Shown: piece by piece, positions 38,363 to 44,587 of the stretch | How positions within the stretch are numbered: position 1 is the first letter of the stretch | Layout of the letters: each line of letters opens with the position of its first letter | NCBI RefSeq assembly: GCF_003334305.1 | Contig: NZ_QOWS01000024.1 | Origin: Escherichia coli | GTDB taxonomy: Bacteria > Pseudomonadota > Gammaproteobacteria > Enterobacterales > Enterobacteriaceae | Length of the DNA stretch: 64,000 nucleotides | Direction: 5' to 3' (one strand) | Translations under genes and position numbers: made by a program | The notes under the pieces: generated by a model | What the model saw: the letters and a program-made list of their open reading frames with translations, nothing else | Database searches by the model: none | Told to the model about the DNA's origin: nothing

Positions 38363-39067
38363 ATGGACAGATTCCCACGTTCTGATTCAATCGTACAACC
38401 CCGGGCTGGCTTGCAAACTTATATGGCGCAAGTCTATGGCTGGATGACCGTTGGCTTGTTGCTGACCGCATTTGTTGCCTGGTATGCGGCTAATTCCGCG
38501 GCCGTGATGGAGCTGTTGTTTACTAACCGTGTCTTTTTAATCGGTCTGATCATCGCGCAATTAGCATTGGTTATTGTGTTATCAGCGATGATTCAAAAGC
38601 TGAGCGCAGGTGTAACGACGATGCTCTTTATGCTTTATTCGGCGCTGACGGGTCTTACGCTTTCCAGTATATTCATTGTCTATACCGCTGCTTCTATCGC
38701 CAGTACTTTCGTCGTTACTGCCGGGATGTTCGGCGCAATGAGCCTGTACGGTTACACCACGAAGCGCGATTTAAGTGGCTTTGGCAATATGCTGTTTATG
38801 GCGTTAATCGGCATTGTGCTGGCATCGCTGGTCAACTTCTGGCTGAAAAGCGAAGCATTGATGTGGGCAGTTACCTACATCGGCGTGATTGTCTTTGTCG
38901 GATTGACGGCGTATGACACTCAGAAATTGAAAAATATGGGTGAGCAGATTGATACCCGCGACACGTCGAACCTGCGCAAATATTCCATTCTTGGCGCGTT
39001 AACCTTGTATCTGGACTTCATCAACCTGTTCCTGATGTTGCTGCGAATTTTTGGCAACCGCCGTTAA
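38363..39067 (+). CDS. ybhL: BAX inhibitor-1 (TMBIM) family inner membrane protein
   Basis: ORF track 38282..39067; start trimmed to MDRFPRSDSIVQPRAGLQTYMAQVYGWM (234 aa); 7-TM profile. Confidence 0.88.
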   Translation: MDRFPRSDSIVQPRAGLQTYMAQVYGWMTVGLLLTAFVAWYAANSAAVMELLFTNRVFLIGLIIAQLALVIVLSAMIQKLSAGVTTMLFMLYSALTGLTLSSIFIVYTAASIASTFVVTAGMFGAMSLYGYTTKRDLSGFGNMLFMALIGIVLASLVNFWLKSEALMWAVTYIGVIVFVGLTAYDTQKLKNMGEQIDTRDTSNLRKYSILGALTLYLDFINLFLMLLRIFGNRR

Positions 39068-39085
39068 TTCTTTTTCACCATCAAT

Positions 39086-39114
39086 ATCCCGGCCATGTGT
39101 CGGGATTTTTTTTC
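39086..39114 (+). terminator. rho-independent terminator after ybhL
   Basis: Hairpin ATCCCGGCC-ATGTG-TCGGGAT followed by TTTTTTTT. Confidence 0.55.
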
Positions 39115-39271
39115 TTACTAAAAACGACACTTAACAAGTACCAGGTATAAAATACGCCTTATGGCGAGCGGAAGCGTTTTCCGTATCCATAAATACAAAA
39201 GTATTTTGTATGCGTGGTTTTAAATTTATTGATGGTGAATATTAATATTTTTTCTAAGGACAACTAAAAGA

Positions 39272-39985
39272 ATGGAATCATATTCACAAAACAGCAATAA
39301 ATTAGATTTTCAGCACGAGACCAGGATATTAAACGGTATATGGCTCATTACCGCTTTAGGTTTGGTGGCAACCGCAGGACTGGCCTGGGGAGCTAAGTAT
39401 CTCGAAATTACGGCAACCAAATATGATTCACCAACAATGTATGTCGCCATAGGGTTATTATTAGTTTGTATGTATGGCTTAAGTAAGGATATCAACAAGA
39501 TAAATGCCGTCATCGCAGGCGTAATATATCTGTTTTTACTCTCTTTGGTGGCGATTGTCGTTGCAAGTTTAGCTCCTGTACCTGCCATTATCGTCGTGTT
39601 CAGCACTGCGGGCGCGATGTTTTTAATCAGTATGCTGGCCGGTTTATTATTTAATGTTGATCCTGGTTCTCACCGTTTTATCATTATGATGACGTTGACA
39701 GGTTTGGCCCTGGTGATCATCATGAATGCCGCATTAATGAGTGAACGACCCGTTTGGGTAATAAGTTGCTTAATGATTGTGTTATGGTCAGGCATTATCT
39801 CGCATGGACGAAATAAGCTCCTTGAATTGGCTGGGAAATGCCATAGTGAAGAGTTGTGGAGTCCGGTTCGTTGCGCTGTTACAGGTGCATTAACACTCTA
39901 TTACTATTTTATCGGCTTCTTTGGGATACTTGCCGCGATAGCTATAACGCTTGTCTGGCAAAGGCATACGCGTTTTTTTCATTAG
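39272..39985 (+). CDS. ybhM: BAX inhibitor-1-like inner membrane protein (paralog of ybhL)
   Basis: ORF track 237 aa; shares the C-terminal GALTLY motif with YbhL. Confidence 0.85.
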   Translation: MESYSQNSNKLDFQHETRILNGIWLITALGLVATAGLAWGAKYLEITATKYDSPTMYVAIGLLLVCMYGLSKDINKINAVIAGVIYLFLLSLVAIVVASLAPVPAIIVVFSTAGAMFLISMLAGLLFNVDPGSHRFIIMMTLTGLALVIIMNAALMSERPVWVISCLMIVLWSGIISHGRNKLLELAGKCHSEELWSPVRCAVTGALTLYYYFIGFFGILAAIAITLVWQRHTRFFH

Positions 39986-40020
39986 TCGTAAATGCAGATA
40001 CTAAAGAACTTAACTAAACT

Positions 40021-40977
40021 TCACATCGCCGCTTCATTTTTCGCCCGTAGCTTCTTCGCCTGGCTTTCCAGTAGCAGGTAACAGATCAGCGCCAGCAGCA
40101 GCGGGATAAAGTAATACAGGACGCGATAAGCGAGTAGGGCGGCGATAATTGTGCCTTTGGATGTATGCTCCCCAGCCAGTAGCGCGATAAACACCGCTTC
40201 CAGCACACCGATCCCCGCCGGAATATGCACGATGACGCCAGCAATACTACTAACCAGTAACACGCCCAGTACAAAGAAATAGTTCACGCTTTGACCAAGT
40301 AACAGCCAGATAATCGCCCCCATTACCATCCAGTTAACGCTGGAAATCAGCATCTGAGCGAGGGCGAATTTCCATGAAGGCAGCACCAGTTTTTGCCCTT
40401 TGATGGTCATATGGCGGTGCTTCGCGAAAGCGCAAAACCACAAATAAACCGCGATAATCATCAGTAAGCCAATGCCGAGAATACGCAGCGTAGTTTGATC
40501 GACATACCAGTGATCCGGCAACTCCACCACGCCTGCGGTAAAGATAATCCCTGCCAGTAAAATATAGCCCAGCCAGTTGGTGGTAATACTGAGCGAGAAA
40601 ATCCGCGTAATAGTGCTGCCCGGTAACCCTAGTCGGGAGTACAAACGATAGCGCATACCAATGCCGCCGACCCAGGTACTGAGCGTCAGGTTGAAGGCGT
40701 AGCAGATAAACGACACCAGCATCACCTGGCGCTTCGCCAGTTTGTGACCGCAGTAAAAGCGGGCGAGCAGGTCATAGCAGCCGTAAATCAGATAGCTGAC
40801 GACCACCAGCCCGACCGCACTAAGCAGCGCAACGCGATTGTAGTCGCGGATGACCTTCCAGACCTCTTCCCAGTCCACTTTTTTGGCGTAGACCACCAGC
40901 AACACAATCACCGCGATAAAAAACAGCCAGGTGAGGATCTTCTTTGCTAAGCGCCAGCGCGGGTGTGATTTACTCAT
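40021..40977 (-). CDS. ybhN: inner membrane protein, flippase-like
   Basis: ORF track 318 aa; polytopic membrane protein; start codon overlaps clsB stop. Confidence 0.85.
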   Translation of the reverse strand: MSKSHPRWRLAKKILTWLFFIAVIVLLVVYAKKVDWEEVWKVIRDYNRVALLSAVGLVVVSYLIYGCYDLLARFYCGHKLAKRQVMLVSFICYAFNLTLSTWVGGIGMRYRLYSRLGLPGSTITRIFSLSITTNWLGYILLAGIIFTAGVVELPDHWYVDQTTLRILGIGLLMIIAVYLWFCAFAKHRHMTIKGQKLVLPSWKFALAQMLISSVNWMVMGAIIWLLLGQSVNYFFVLGVLLVSSIAGVIVHIPAGIGVLEAVFIALLAGEHTSKGTIIAALLAYRVLYYFIPLLLALICYLLLESQAKKLRAKNEAAM

Positions 40978-42218
40978 CAGGGTTTTACCCCCGTGTTTTC
41001 AGTTTCTACCCGATCCTGCGTTTCCATTGTCGGTTGTGCGGGCGGATCAACCTGCGCCAGACGTGGTGTGTGTGCCGGAAGCCAGCCAACCAGCGCCGGG
41101 AAGTGGCGTAAAAAGTGGAACGCCAGCACGCTTTTGGTCAGGTTCCACCAGGTGCGTTTCGGCAGCATGGTCTCATCGACCTGCTGACAATCTGCGGCAA
41201 TAATGCCGTTCAGATTATCGCGCAGCGTCTGGTTAAAATGACGATCGTGGATGATGACATTTGCTTCGAGATTCAGTGACAAACTGAGCGGATCGAGATT
41301 ACTGGACCCTACTGTCGCCCAGTGATCGTCCATCAATGCCACTTTGCCGTGGAGCGGGCGGCGGCGGTACTCAAATACCTGAACGCCGCCTTTAACCAGA
41401 TAGTTATACAGCAAGCGCGCACCGACTCTGACAATCGGCATATCCGGTTCGCCCTGAATGATCAGTTTGATCCGCACCCCGCGCCGTGCCGCTTTACGCA
41501 AGGCGTGTAAAAATCGATAGCCGGGGAAGAAGTAGGCGTTGGCGATAATGACTTCTCGCCGCGCCTGAGTGAGCATTTTCAGATAGTGACGTTCAATATC
41601 ATCGCGATGTTCTTCGTTATCGCGCCAGACCAGCAATACCTGCGCTTCTCCCGGCTGGCGGTTCTCTTCCGCTTTGTGATGACGTCGCCACCAGCGTCGT
41701 GCCGCGCTCTGTCCAGGCAGGTTTTCCAGCTCAAACTGGAGAATATCTTCGACAATCGGCCCTTCAAGGCGTACCGCGTAATCCTGTTTAGCCTCTGGAC
41801 CGTAGCTGGACATATGCTCGGCGGAGTAATTCAGCCCGCCAATAAAGGCGATACGCGCGTCGATCACCACAATTTTGCGATGCATCCGGCGAAACACATT
41901 GGTGCGCATACCAAAAAGGCGAGGGCGGGGATCGTAGTAGCGAAATACCACGCCAGCTGCCGTCAGTTCATTGACAAACTCATCGCTGAGATCCGGCGAA
42001 CCGTAGCCATCCAGCAAGACTTCCGCTTTAACCCCGCGTTGCGCTGCTGCCAGTAGTGCCGCATGCAGCTGTTTGCCGACGTCATCCTCAAACCAGATAA
42101 ACGTTTCAAGAATGATGCGTTCTTGTGCCTCGCCAATCGCCTTAAACACCGCGGGATAATATTGCTCGCCGTTTTCCAGCAACTGGATCTTATTGCCTTC
42201 GCGCCAGCTACATTTCAT
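40977..42218 (-). CDS. clsB: cardiolipin synthase B (phospholipase D family)
   Basis: ORF track 413 aa; two HxK(x)4D-type PLD motifs ([17 protein letters not shown]). Confidence 0.9.
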
Positions 42219-42976
42219 AAATGAATCTCCGCACTTAAAGGGGCATGATCAGAAAGGTGTCGCCATGTCCGCAGCGGCAACGCGGTTGGCGCGCTGGCGC
42301 TGGCATTTTTGACGTAGATCCTGTCCAGTCGTAGTAGAGGAAATTGCACCGGAAACGTGCGCGCCGGGCGTCCGTGGGCGCGGGTAAAAATCTCATCCAG
42401 TCCGGCCTGCACTTTTAACGGATGATTAGCTTTTTGCCGCCAGTCATTGAAATCACCCGCCACCAATACCGGTTCGCCGTCCGGTAGCTCATTCACCCAT
42501 TCGGCGAGCATCGCAAGCTGCGCCTGACGGTGCGCCTCACGCAGGCCCAGATGTACGCACATCACATGAATCGCTTTTCCGGTCATCGGTGGCACAATGC
42601 GGCAGTAGAGCACGCCGCGCTTTTCCGCACCATCGACCGAAACATCGCGATTCTCATAATGTTCAATGGGATAACGCGACAGTACGGCGTTGCCGTGATG
42701 CCCTTCCGGGTATACGGCATTGCGACCGTAGGCAAAATCGCTCCACATCGTGTCGGCGAGAAACTCGTAGTGCGAGGTATCGGGCCAGTTTTCCACATGC
42801 AGCGGATGAACTTCGTGCGCGCCCATCACTTCCTGCAGGCAAACAATATCGGCGCTGACGGTACGCACCGCGTCGCGAAGTTCCGGCAAAATGAAGCGTC
42901 GGTTAAACGCGGTAAAACCTTTGTGAATGTTGATGGTGAGCACCTTGAACGAAAATTGTTGTGTTTGATCGGGCAT
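42215..42976 (-). CDS. ybhP: endonuclease/exonuclease/phosphatase (EEP) family protein
   Basis: ORF track 253 aa; stop overlaps clsB start by 4 nt. Confidence 0.85.
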
Positions 42977-43108
42977 AATTTTCCTGTCTTTGCCTCTTAT
43001 CTCATTGAAATAGTGTAGTCGGCGTCACAAAAAGGTGCGGTCTTACGGAATTTTCCGTAAAGTTCGGTACTCTGAGTAAGTAGAGATAAATTCTTCAGGA
43101 GAGAAGCC

Positions 43109-43519
43109 ATGAAGTGGCAACAACGTGTTCGTGTCGCAACTGGTCTAAGTTGCTGGCAGATTATGTTGCATTTACTGGTAGTGGCGCTGCTGGTGGTGGG
43201 CTGGATGAGTAAGACTCTGGTTCACGTCGGCGTGGGATTATGCGCACTGTATTGTGTCACGGTAGTGATGATGTTGGTGTTTCAGCGCCACCCCGAGCAA
43301 CGCTGGCGTGAGGTGGCAGACGTGCTGGAAGAGCTGACCACGACCTGGTATTTTGGCGCAGCGCTGATTGTGCTGTGGCTGTTGTCCCGTGTACTGGAAA
43401 ACAACTTTTTGCTGGCAATTGCAGGGCTGGCAATCCTTGCCGGCCCGGCGGTAGTTTCTTTGCTGGCGAAAGATAAGAAGTTACATCACCTTACGTCTAA
43501 ACATCGCGTACGCCGCTGA
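43109..43519 (+). CDS. ybhQ: inner membrane protein
   Basis: ORF track 136 aa; 4 predicted TM helices; 3' end overlaps convergent ybhR. Confidence 0.8.
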
Positions 43520-44587
43520 CCCTGTCGTGGCCGTTATCACCAGTAGCGGCCACAAACTATTCCACACAATATCCAGACTCGCATCCTTCAAATAAATCTG
43601 CTTGGTAATGTCCGTAAAGTGGCGAATAGGGTTAATCCACGTCAGGTTTTGCAGCCATACTGGCATGTTTTCCACCGGAGAAACGTAACCGGAAAGGAGA
43701 ATGGCGGGCATCATAAAAACAAACACGCCGATAAACGCCTGCTGTTGTGTCGAGCAGAGTGATGAAATCAACAGACCGAATCCCACCAGCGATAAACCGT
43801 AAATCACCATCGTAAAGTAGAACAGCGCCAGCGATCCGGCGAAGGGGATTTGATACGCCCAGATACCAATCGCCAGCACAATGGTGGCCTGGAAGGTGGC
43901 GACAATTAACGCCGGTACGGCTTTGCCGATGAAGATCTGCCAGGTGGTGAGCGGCGAAACCAGTAGCTGATCGAGCGTACCTTGTTCACGTTCGCGGGCG
44001 ACGGAAAGTGAAGTGACGATCATTACGCCGATAGTGGTGATCATGGCGATCAGCGACGGCACCACAAACCATTTGTAGTCAAGATTCGGGTTATACCAGT
44101 TGCGTACCACCAGCTCGCTGTTGTTAGGTTTCGGTTTTCCTTCCAGCAGCTCCTGCTGATAATTTTTGACGATCTGTTGCAGGTAGTTGGCGGCAATTTG
44201 CGCACTGTTGGAGTTACGCCCGTCGAGGATCAACTGCAACGGCGCGGTCTGGAAGGTATCCAGTTTGCGCGAGAAGTCAGCCGGGAAACGCACCAGTAGT
44301 AACGCCTTTTGTGTGTCGATGGTTGGGCGGATCTCCTGTGGGCTTTTCAGCAGCAGCACATGAGTAAAGGCGCTGGCGCGGGCAAAACGTTGGGTCAGCT
44401 CCACCGAATGCTCGCCGTTATCTTCATCGTAGATGGCGATGGTGGCGTTAGTCACTTCCAGCGTGGCGGCGAACGGGAACAGAATCACCTGAATAAGCAC
44501 AGGTAAAATCAGAATCGCGCGGGTTTGCGGTTCGCGCAGCAGCGACTGCAACTCTTTGCGGATTAACGTCCATAAGCGATGAAACAT
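43481..44587 (-). CDS. ybhR: ABC-2 type transporter permease
   Basis: ORF track 368 aa. Confidence 0.88.

Follow-up and report, generated by a model that had tools for sequence, protein, structure and literature searches.

Locus and gene content

The window, by which is meant the whole 64,000-nucleotide stretch of DNA analysed here, is a piece of E. coli chromosome, and its list of open reading frames contains ybhP, clsB and ybhN as three minus-strand genes at coordinates that had been claimed beforehand (Table 1). DNA of the locus is 100% identical to that of many E. coli chromosomes, the ybhP-clsB-ybhN locus was found in 5423 of 5426 complete genomes, and in RefSeq an identical E. coli genome is annotated with the same three genes and boundaries. 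What lies here is the stress-induced ybhP-clsB-ybhN operon, real and already known: it has been described for E. coli and Salmonella, with a two-hybrid interaction between YbhN (PplT) and ClsB (bioRxiv 10.1101/2022.03.11.483950), and has been cloned as ‘the clsB operon’ (PMC9241728). Set against the E. coli K-12/Salmonella operon of those two reports, the locus, its genes, their order and their boundaries are the same, with no difference at the level of sequence. The gene identities, shared strand and overlaps put forward in a first-pass annotation of this DNA were all right, in agreement with the reading frames, RefSeq, family profiles and the literature, and its interpretation mostly restated published knowledge. 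As the locus is textbook-adjacent, its discovery value is low.

Table 1. Genes, gene junctions and candidate control sites of the ybhP-clsB-ybhN locus, in window positions
Feature	Position	Strand	Description
ybhP	42976..42215	-	253 aa; predicted cytoplasmic phosphoesterase of the endonuclease/exonuclease/phosphatase (EEP) family
clsB	42218..40977	-	413 aa; PLD-superfamily transphosphatidylase (cardiolipin synthase B), without transmembrane helices
ybhN (pplT)	40977..40021	-	318 aa; polytopic membrane protein, homologue of the MprF flippase domain
ATGA overlap, ybhP stop/clsB start	42215..42218	-	4 nt; GGAG at 42227-42230
TGATG overlap, clsB stop/ybhN start	40975..40979	-	1 shared base (40977); G-run at 40988-40992
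Conserved block TTTGTGAC (43031-43024), then CTACACT (43018-43012), upstream of ybhP	43012..43031	-	candidate promoter
Inverted repeat TTACGGAA-NN-TTCCGTAA, ybhQ/ybhP divergent intergenic region	43043..43060		candidate regulator-binding site

Long antisense reading frames also cross the locus (e.g. 41586-42056 and 42530-43018, both on the plus strand) and were taken as the usual shadow frames of a GC-rich coding strand. An Rfam scan (E <= 0.1) of positions 39000-44000 returned no RNA family. In earlier annotation, YbhP has appeared as a ‘predicted DNase’.

Gene junctions and conservation of the cluster

Both junctions combine an overlapping stop and start codon with a Shine-Dalgarno sequence inside the preceding gene. 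At the first (...CAT TTA TGA, with the clsB ATG at 42218-42216), the GGAG stands 8 nt upstream of the ATG and is embedded in the conserved YbhP end ...A/V-E-I-x-L*; at the second, the run GGGGG stands 10 nt upstream of the ybhN ATG. The overlapping codons favour the view that translation of the three genes may be coupled. A fixed stoichiometry, which the first-pass annotation had drawn from the same overlaps, does not follow from them, since overlaps are common nearby (6 of 25 further same-strand pairs of adjacent genes within the surrounding 43 kb overlap too) and published transcript changes fall along the operon, as under a LolCDE inhibitor (17.6-, 12.3- and 4.4-fold; PMC5105897); RpoS dependence has been given as 251 versus 7 for ybhP/ybhO, ybhO being another name of clsB (PMC2907692).

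The overlapping genes are thus real but ordinary; the ybhP/clsB junction itself is conserved far beyond E. coli. Judged from inferred start codons in the other genomes, the A/GTGA junction is kept in 64 of 72 related loci, with ATG or GTG at -4 and the ClsB frame open, and at the clsB/ybhN junction 40 of 69 loci offer a start codon at -1 or -4, with longer overlaps in further Pseudomonas loci. The order ybhP>clsB>ybhN on one strand was found at 69 of the 80 YbhP loci compared, which span Enterobacterales, Pseudomonas, Burkholderiales, Halomonadaceae and Cellvibrio (Gamma- and Betaproteobacteria). Synteny published for Enterobacteriaceae only (Escherichia, Shigella, Klebsiella, Pantoea) is hereby extended to the last four of these groups and to fused forms.

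Were the cluster a matter of transcriptional convenience, the overlaps would be ordinary operon packing and YbhP a nucleic-acid phosphodiesterase without a role in lipid metabolism. We consider this very improbable, given that the junction is kept in two classes of Proteobacteria and that nature has joined the two proteins outright. At least three divergent EEP-PLD fusions exist, namely P0220 (648 aa), P0271 (645 aa, 42% identical) and P0272 (710 aa, 30% identical), each with a PF03372 and two PLDc_2 domains, and the gene for P0272 is followed by an overlapping PF03706 (ybhN-like) gene. The same reading is at odds with YbhP homologues at 37-41% identity, which still adjoin ClsB-like genes in other orders and orientations. 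Several distant YbhP homologues had no PLD neighbour, or lay on contigs too short to tell, so the EEP-PLD linkage is frequent rather than universal; Pseudomonas, moreover, carries stand-alone ybhP paralogues. Conserved adjacency, linkage independent of gene order and natural fusion would between them tie the function of YbhP to that of ClsB.

The three proteins

YbhP matches PF03372 (E 3e-23), with an EEP domain and the four-layer alpha/beta sandwich fold, and the residues N16, E49, N96, D175, N177, D218, D243 and H244, its metal-binding and catalytic set, do not vary among 54 homologues (35-63% identity); by hydropathy it has no transmembrane segments. On this evidence the protein is predicted to be a soluble EEP phosphoesterase with its catalytic site intact. 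Among characterised proteins, those nearest to it in fold include both DNA/RNA enzymes (TDP2, nocturnin, CNOT6L) and sphingomyelinases, a mix that gives no pointer to a lipid substrate, whilst the structures nearest of all are the uncharacterised structural-genomics proteins 4RUW, 3G6S and 3L1W. Identity to neutral and bacterial sphingomyelinases and other EEP phosphodiesterases (PDB 8J2F, 7CNE, 4FPV) is only 18-23%, and comparison with these enzymes identified no membrane-binding element in YbhP.

ClsB scores 751.2 bits on NCBIfam NF008427 (curated equivalog cut-off 281; residues 1-408 of 409 profile positions) and 208 bits against the general model for bacterial cardiolipin synthases. It has two PLDc_2 domains and two HxKx4D motifs, HRKIVVID at 113 and HGKVALMD at 290, and the H290A form of Salmonella ClsB is catalytically dead (PMC9241728). 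Among solved structures it has no sequence relative at E <= 0.001. The highest 19-residue Kyte-Doolittle mean is 1.16, no segment reaching 1.6, so that ClsB has no transmembrane segment, in agreement with the reported absence of N-terminal membrane helices (PMC12846801). Published work describes a promiscuous PLD-type transphosphatidylase, forming cardiolipin, PG, phosphatidyl-alcohols and the trehalose phospholipids (PMC6446866, PMC9241728); the reactions on record lead from PG to cardiolipin, from glycerol to PG and from trehalose to phosphatidyl- and diphosphatidyl-trehalose (PT/diPT), and the trehalose phospholipids require ClsB (PMC6446866). With ClsA, the main cardiolipin synthase of E. 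coli, ClsB shares the PLD superfamily, two HKD motifs and the PG + PG reaction; unlike ClsA, it is without N-terminal membrane helices, is induced in stationary phase and by RpoS, has a broad acceptor specificity and is accompanied by two dedicated partners. Another counterpart is ClsC-YmdB, reportedly described by Tan et al. in 2012 as a two-gene cardiolipin synthase system of E. coli, which is likewise said to join a PLD-type synthase lacking transmembrane segments to a co-encoded accessory protein and to be active in stationary-phase/osmotic conditions. There the accessory protein is reportedly a macrodomain protein, rather than an EEP enzyme and a flippase-like membrane protein, and ClsC is said to use PE and PG.

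YbhN has about eight hydrophobic segments and matches PF03706 (LPG_synthase_TM; E 4.6e-15). Positions 3-301 of the 841 in the MprF profile NF033480 align to it with E 4e-48 and 164 bits against a cut-off of 600, and at 318 aa it is without the fused C-terminal aminoacyl-PG synthase domain of a bifunctional MprF. Structural comparison with MprF flippase domains, the check proposed in the first-pass annotation, returned the same fold: Foldseek matched YbhN to six MprF structures at TM-scores of 0.74-0.76 and to nothing else, and profile matches to solved MprF chains ran from E 4e-38 (the best, PDB 7F47) to 2e-34. Alignment with MprF (PDB 7DUW, 7F47, 9J8Q) extends over the whole N-terminal flippase domain at a TM-score of about 0.75, and the shared motifs include RYRLY, PxGxGVxE with the gate Glu and YRxxY with the gate Arg. 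YbhN carries the family set D69, R109-Y110/R111, P253...E260 and Y284-R285...Y288...P292, for which the reference residues are E280, Y303, R304 and Y307 of RtMprF and D71, R112-Y, P247/D254 and R279-Y-P286 of SaMprF (PMC4324311, PMC8131360). Profile alignment places E260, Y284, R285 and Y288 of YbhN at those four RtMprF residues, whose gate and head-group roles are set out in PMC8131360; in 33 YbhN orthologues D69, E260, R285 and Y288 are invariant, and Y284 is conserved, invariant or nearly so.

One position departs from this pattern. Asn215 of YbhN, Asn in 33 of 33 orthologues, occupies the place of RtMprF D234, where all three solved MprF species have Asp; RtMprF D234 and SaMprF E206 are the mid-membrane acidic residues that bind the aminoacyl (lysyl/alanyl) head group. 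YbhN thus belongs to the domain family without, it would seem, being an aminoacyl-PG flippase. To our knowledge, aminoacyl-PG is not made by E. coli. YbhN and MprF are alike in that a lipid-modifying enzyme is paired with a flippase-type domain, and they differ in that YbhN is a separate protein whose partner is a PLD-type transphosphatidylase, not a tRNA-dependent aminoacyl transferase. Deletion of pplT in strain CFT073 left the phospholipid pattern on TLC unchanged and caused only a moderate growth defect. The name PplT was given to YbhN as an MprF-flippase homologue interacting with ClsB (bioRxiv 10.1101/2022.03.11.483950).

That interaction could also mean that YbhN, instead of being a translocator, does no more than anchor the helix-less ClsB to the membrane or activate it, in the manner of YmdB, which is needed for full ClsC activity. 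Such a role would suit an enzyme without a transmembrane segment that binds PplT in a two-hybrid assay and that coupled translation would deliver beside nascent YbhN, and the evidence for flipping by YbhN is indirect even in the literature. A pure anchor, however, would not need gate residues, and so the conservation of the MprF gate and head-group positions (E260, Y284, R285, Y288 and D69) across the 33 orthologues counts against it. It also sits poorly with those loci in which the neighbouring position holds, instead of ybhN, a gene with a DedA/VTT domain, another family proposed to move lipids. We judge the anchor to be distinctly unlikely as the whole of YbhN's function.

Expression under stress

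Upstream of ybhP, the block TTTGTGAC-N4-5-ACTACAC is invariant in an alignment of 11 genera from Escherichia to Erwinia, and CTACACT has the form of a sigmaS-type -10 element with C at -13; the block may well be the promoter of the operon. A consensus scan of 39800-43300 for sigma70 promoters and terminators yielded no more than shuffling would lead one to expect, and no site in front of ybhP, so the proposal rests on the alignment together with the published RpoS dependence of the operon (PMC2907692). The inverted repeat TTACGGAA-NN-TTCCGTAA is conserved in Enterobacteriaceae and degenerate in Pantoea and Erwinia, making it a candidate site for a regulator; an inverted-repeat scan returned only an insignificant 12-nt palindrome within clsB. 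Both substrate and trigger had been called ill defined. That holds for the physiological substrate and no longer for the trigger: besides RpoS control, clsB is induced about 9-fold in late stationary phase (PMC12846801), the operon is also induced by envelope stress, and a sigmaE ChIP peak lies in the Salmonella ybhP/ybhQ intergenic region (PMC4577112).

A probable module for lipid head-group exchange

The locus probably encodes a core, stress-induced, translationally coupled module for lipid head-group exchange, in which ClsB is served by YbhN for docking and translocation and by YbhP for editing or recycling. A single transcript would arise from the sigmaS-type promoter in the ybhQ/ybhP intergenic region, and its three cistrons would be translated in a coupled way through the ATGA and TGATG junctions. 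At the cytoplasmic face, as published work shows, ClsB acts as a PLD-type transphosphatidylase, passing phosphatidyl from PG or PE to an alcohol acceptor. YbhN/PplT, seemingly an MprF flippase domain that stands on its own and that binds ClsB in the published two-hybrid data, would dock the enzyme on the membrane and might move non-cationic ClsB products or substrates between leaflets through a Glu260-Arg285 gate, whilst YbhP may hydrolyse a phosphoester on a substrate, product or side product of ClsB. The general idea of a lipid head-group module, already present in the first-pass annotation, agrees with the literature (bioRxiv 10.1101/2022.03.11.483950, PMC9241728, PMC6446866). One published result might seem to make the partners dispensable: a Salmonella clsB mutant regained PT/diPT when given nothing but plasmid-borne clsB. 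That strain still had an intact ybhP on its chromosome, and what became of ybhN, downstream of the insertion, was not examined; the rescue is therefore silent on the need for either.

A more specific reading makes the triad a dedicated trehalose-phospholipid pathway, with PT/diPT made when trehalose accumulates (stationary phase/osmotic stress), cardiolipin a side activity, YbhN exporting the bulky neutral head group and YbhP setting the PT/diPT balance or recycling. Its appeal lies partly in gene neighbourhood: the triad sits between treY-glgX and glgB-treS in five Pseudomonas/Cellvibrio genomes, a lone ybhP paralogue takes that position in six others, and a rough NJ tree places these lone paralogues beside a triad copy from a glg locus. 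RpoS control of the operon, the invariant Asn in YbhN in place of the cation-binding Asp of MprF, and the finding that Salmonella ClsB is essential for PT/diPT and not for cardiolipin levels would all suit it. Yet only 11 of the 80 loci, all from Pseudomonadales and Cellvibrionales, show the trehalose-locus linkage; no PT/diPT was detected in P. aeruginosa, Bordetella, Shigella or S. bongori, all of which carry clsB; and PT/diPT were made by only four of six E. coli strains. A literature search found no paper linking YbhP or YbhN to trehalose phospholipids, and cardiolipin is overproduced from the plasmid-borne clsB operon (PMC9241728). On balance we hold a dedicated trehalose pathway to be unlikely.

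A broader version takes the triad to be a glycophospholipid module of ancient origin, complete in itself and linked to the metabolism of trehalose and alpha-glucan. Trehalose or a related sugar would receive the phosphatidyl group from ClsB; YbhN, with Asn in place of the cation-binding Asp, would turn the resulting neutral sugar head group outward; and YbhP would be a lipid head-group phosphodiesterase with an editing or recycling role. This we think unlikely; if it were true, cardiolipin synthesis would be secondary and the name ‘ClsB’ misleading. The triad of P. aeruginosa presumably lies between its two trehalose operons, a placement given no weight here, and a literature search with its locus tags PA2154-PA2156 gave nothing useful.

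For the head-group exchange module that we favour, attention narrows to two points, the compound that YbhP acts on and the possible movement of lipids, in the Gram-negative inner membrane, by an MprF-type domain standing alone. Comparative handles are provided by the EEP-PLD fusions, the conservation of the junction in two classes, the Asp-to-Asn change at the MprF head-group site and the placement at the Pseudomonas trehalose locus. These comparative results are in keeping with the trehalose phospholipids of Salmonella, immunologically relevant lipids that serve as ligands of Mincle.

A known operon with broadly conserved junctions

The ybhP-clsB-ybhN operon, encoding an EEP-family phosphoesterase, a PLD-type transphosphatidylase and a homologue of the MprF flippase domain, is real and was correctly placed and named in the first-pass annotation, but it had already been described in a model organism. 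That description of three same-strand genes with overlapping codons is accurate, matching ORF table and sequence exactly, since the coordinates, both junctions and their upstream elements can be read from the sequence: the ybhP 3' end (CAT TTA TGA) forms a four-base ATGA overlap with clsB, GGAG lies 8 nt upstream of the clsB start, the clsB 3' end (TGATG) shares one base between its stop and the ybhN ATG, and a five-G run lies 10 nt upstream of the ybhN start. RefSeq places the boundaries of all three genes identically. A 3.25-kb query spanning the cluster matched many E. coli chromosomes at 100% identity, and 5423 of the 5426 complete E. coli genomes carry this region. Against the ClsB equivalog model ClsB scores 751 bits (cut-off 281); it has two PLD-like domains, and its two HxKx4D motifs lie at residues 113 and 290. 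YbhP is a PF03372 EEP domain over its full length, and YbhN hits both PF03706 and the MprF model, the latter over its first 300 positions. Some eight membrane-spanning hydrophobic segments occur in YbhN, and hydropathy revealed no segment of such length in YbhP or ClsB.

Features of the ybhP-clsB-ybhN region (genes of the operon from ORF table and sequence)
Feature	Coordinates	Strand	Details
ybhP	42976..42215	minus	253 aa
clsB	42218..40977	minus	413 aa
clsB start codon	42218-42216	minus	ATG
ybhN	40977..40021	minus	318 aa
clsB stop/ybhN start	40977	minus	shared base
Invariant block	43031-43012		TTTGTGAC-N4-5-ACTACAC(T)
Inverted repeat	43043-43060		TTACGGAA-NN-TTCCGTAA, 8+2+8
ybhL and ybhM	38363-39985		adjacent genes
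ybhQ/ybhR 3' overlap	43481-43519		39 nt; ybhQ (plus) ends 43519, ybhR (minus) ends 43481

Overlap by itself is not special, such junctions being routine: 6 of 25 other same-strand neighbour pairs in the surrounding 43 kb overlap, in the bio, moa and ybhRSFG operons. The notable point is the breadth over which the arrangement is conserved. A degenerate-peptide scan, taking one genome per species, yielded 80 loci with YbhP relatives at 57–89% identity, from Enterobacterales, Pseudomonas, Halomonadaceae, Cellvibrio and many Burkholderiales (L-numbers below denote related loci in other genomes or metagenomes, in their own coordinates). A same-strand ClsB gene comes after the YbhP gene in 72 of these, followed by a YbhN gene in 69 of the 72; two of the three exceptions reach a contig edge, leaving Dickeya as the only true absence. 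With start codons outside E. coli inferred, an ATG (48) or GTG (16) at -4 opens the ClsB frame in 64/72 loci, and the conserved YbhP C-terminus, ...A/V-E-I-x-L, embeds GGAG ahead of this start. Of the 69 loci with ybhN, 40 offer a start codon at -1 or -4 for the second junction; overlaps are longer in P. fluorescens-group genomes.

Departures from the standard order were also seen. Dickeya undicola (L014:5872-7949) has ybhP-clsB with a GTGA junction and no ybhN in its 12.7-kb locus, the sole sufficiently long locus without the membrane partner. In a Cellvibrio MAG (L078:6747-11311) ybhP precedes two tandem clsB-ybhN pairs, and a Ramlibacter MAG (L073:8105-9987) carries two tandem ybhN copies downstream of clsB.

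The proposal that these genes form a lipid head-group remodelling unit agrees with the current view and is not new, as the operon, the interaction of its products and the promiscuity of ClsB are already published. A 2022 preprint named YbhN PplT, reported the operon in Enterobacteriaceae, identified ClsB and PgpA/B/C as two-hybrid partners of PplT, and found that mutation of pplT left the lipid pattern on TLC as it was and moderately impaired growth and competition (10.1101/2022.03.11.483950). The 'whole clsB operon' of Salmonella, ybhP-clsB-ybhN, has been cloned on a plasmid, which restored and even overproduced cardiolipin in a triple cls mutant, except with H290 mutated; ClsB promiscuously makes PG, phosphatidyl-alcohols and phosphatidyl- and diphosphatidyl-trehalose (PT and diPT) (PMC9241728). 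clsB is needed for 6-phosphatidyltrehalose and 6,6'-diphosphatidyltrehalose, not for cardiolipin levels, and additional factors determine which clsB-positive strains produce PT/diPT (PMC6446866).

YbhN retains the MprF gate residues

Structural comparison of YbhN with MprF flippase domains, as the first-pass annotation had suggested, matched MprF only, by profile and by model: a PDB profile search with 33 YbhN orthologues returned only MprF chains (E 4e-38 to 2e-34), and a YbhN model (pLDDT 86) superposed only on six MprF structures (TM-score 0.74–0.76). In a residue map drawn from the printed alignments, E280, R304 and Y307 of RtMprF, the MprF chain used for numbering, correspond to YbhN E260, R285 and Y288, all invariant in the 33 orthologues; Y303 corresponds to the nearly invariant Y284 (31 Y, 2 W), and YbhN also keeps the RYRLY motif and D69. 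E280-R304 forms the gate between two lipid cavities of MprF (PMC8131360), and the equivalent S. aureus residues are critical (PMC4324311). In contrast, RtMprF D234, to which the lysyl head group binds and whose position holds Asp or Glu in MprFs (PMC8131360), corresponds to YbhN N215, Asn in 33/33 orthologues; all three solved MprF species have Asp there. Because E260, R285 and Y288 are conserved and D234 is replaced, YbhN appears to have kept the translocation apparatus and lost the cation-binding carboxylate, a pattern that would fit cargo whose head group is neutral or anionic, as in the products of ClsB. YbhN could instead be only an anchor or activator, to which its two-hybrid contact with ClsB is relevant; given these retained gate residues, we consider that unlikely.

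YbhP is linked to ClsB

YbhP is the least understood member of the triad. In P0220 (648 aa; L081:3180-5126) a single ORF joins an EEP domain to two downstream PLD domains, and a search with this protein recovered further full-length fusions, P0271 (645 aa, 42% identity) and P0272 (710 aa, 30%), together with shorter ones. The three long fusions lie on different contigs (the other loci being L092:4001-5938 and L093:1147-4111) and share 30–42% mutual identity. Downstream of the P0272 gene is an overlapping PF03706 (YbhN-like) gene; this locus is in effect a triad whose first two members have become one protein. YbhP homologues at 37–41% identity adjoin ClsB-like genes in several arrangements: convergent (L082), EEP then overlapping PLD (L087), or an inositol-monophosphatase-family gene, then PLD, then EEP (L083/L084); elsewhere, distant homologues lack a PLD neighbour or sit on short contigs. 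Such fusions and order-independent adjacency indicate that YbhP is functionally tied to ClsB. As none of its active-site residues (N16, E49, N96, D175, N177, D218, D243 and H244) varies across 54 diverse homologues, YbhP is an enzyme rather than a degenerate scaffold. Membership of a family that includes nucleases leaves room for an unrelated nuclease, an explanation that we regard as highly improbable beside this linkage.

A further candidate, the 84%-identical Enterobacteriaceae entry P0033, combines PF03372 and PLD domains in one 389-aa product on a 2.4-kb contig; a frameshift at the ATGA junction or faulty assembly is its probable origin, and a true fusion is less likely. The tight row of inositol-monophosphatase-family, ClsB-like and YbhP-like genes (L083:1947-4753; L084:693-3499) is suggestive of a pathway for polyol or sugar-phosphate head groups. 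In two metagenomic loci where no YbhN-like gene was detected, a DedA/VTT-domain gene overlaps the EEP start by 4 nt (L082:3411-6050), or a DedA/VTT domain fused to a pyridine-nucleotide oxidoreductase lies beside EEP/PLD (L081:5136-7268); this may represent non-homologous replacement of YbhN by another putative lipid-moving family.

A possible trehalose connection in one clade

When neighbour families were clustered over the 80 loci and assigned NCBIfam names, the triad was found inside a trehalose/alpha-glucan locus in P. saliphila, P. kuykendallii, P. oryzihabitans, P. subflava and the Cellvibrio MAG (L056:68-12693, L023, L015, L064, L078), in the order treY-glgX-(PIG-L-like deacetylase)-(DUF72)-ybhP-clsB-ybhN, with glgB and treS/maltokinase following on the opposite strand. 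Six P. fluorescens-group genomes (L070, L072, L074, L075, L079, L080) have a lone ybhP paralogue between glgX and glgB and a complete triad elsewhere, beside an MscK-like mechanosensitive channel gene; a rough neighbour-joining tree, which carried no support values, clusters these lone paralogues with one glg-locus triad copy. This linkage agrees with the ClsB-dependent trehalose phospholipids of Salmonella and favours these lipids as the main physiological product, yet it is confined to 11/80 loci in one clade; it is thus a lead and not proof, and we hold that interpretation to be rather doubtful.

In 11 Pseudomonas loci (L024:3438-5564, L055:3547-5760 and nine others of the P. fluorescens group) the triad has a divergently oriented MscK/YbiO-like mechanosensitive channel gene upstream; the E. 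coli ybiO channel gene is ~19 kb from the triad. A DUF72 gene immediately precedes ybhP in 16 loci.

Regulation and expression

A consensus sigma70 scan found no site upstream of ybhP. In an alignment of the ybhQ/ybhP intergenic region, one block is invariant in 11 genera, from Escherichia to Erwinia. Its CTACACT we take to be a putative sigmaS -10 element, with C at -13. Such an element fits the RpoS dependence of the operon, the ~9-fold rise in clsB expression late in stationary phase (PMC12846801), strong upregulation under envelope stress (PMC5105897) and a sigmaE ChIP peak over the Salmonella ybhP/ybhQ intergenic region (PMC4577112). With these findings published, the trigger, previously called ill-defined, is reasonably well defined. 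Nor does the fixed stoichiometry once read from the overlaps follow: overlapping codons favour termination-reinitiation coupling without fixing protein ratios, and published transcript changes are uneven, with 17.6-, 12.3- and 4.4-fold induction of ybhP, clsB and ybhN by a LolCDE inhibitor (PMC5105897) and RpoS dependence of 251 for ybhP vs 7 for ybhO (clsB) (PMC2907692), which argues against a flat expression profile along the operon.

The inverted repeat in the same divergent region is conserved only in Enterobacteriaceae. A candidate sigmaE-type promoter for ybhQ, GGAATTT-N17-TCTGA, lies on the plus strand.

Proposed mechanism

ClsB has been shown to be a broad-acceptor PLD-type transphosphatidylase; stationary phase induces it, and YbhN is an interaction partner. 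The sequence itself shows ClsB and YbhP to be soluble and YbhN polytopic, with overlapping cistrons and intact catalytic and gate residues. We propose that coupled translation would bring ClsB to nascent YbhN, that YbhN would tether ClsB and carry non-cationic compounds made or used by ClsB through the inner membrane, and that YbhP would hydrolyse a phosphoester in a compound that ClsB uses, makes or forms as a by-product; taken as a whole, we judge this general picture to be probable. What value remains comes from the comparative observations, through which the functions of YbhP and YbhN can be put to a direct test.

Neighbouring genes

The adjacent ybhL and ybhM genes encode Bax-inhibitor-1/YccA-family membrane proteins and are convergent with ybhN; the ybhM and ybhN stop codons are 35 nt apart, and no terminator-like hairpin was found in the gap. 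On the other side of the operon, the 3' ends of ybhQ and ybhR converge and overlap, as they do in RefSeq.
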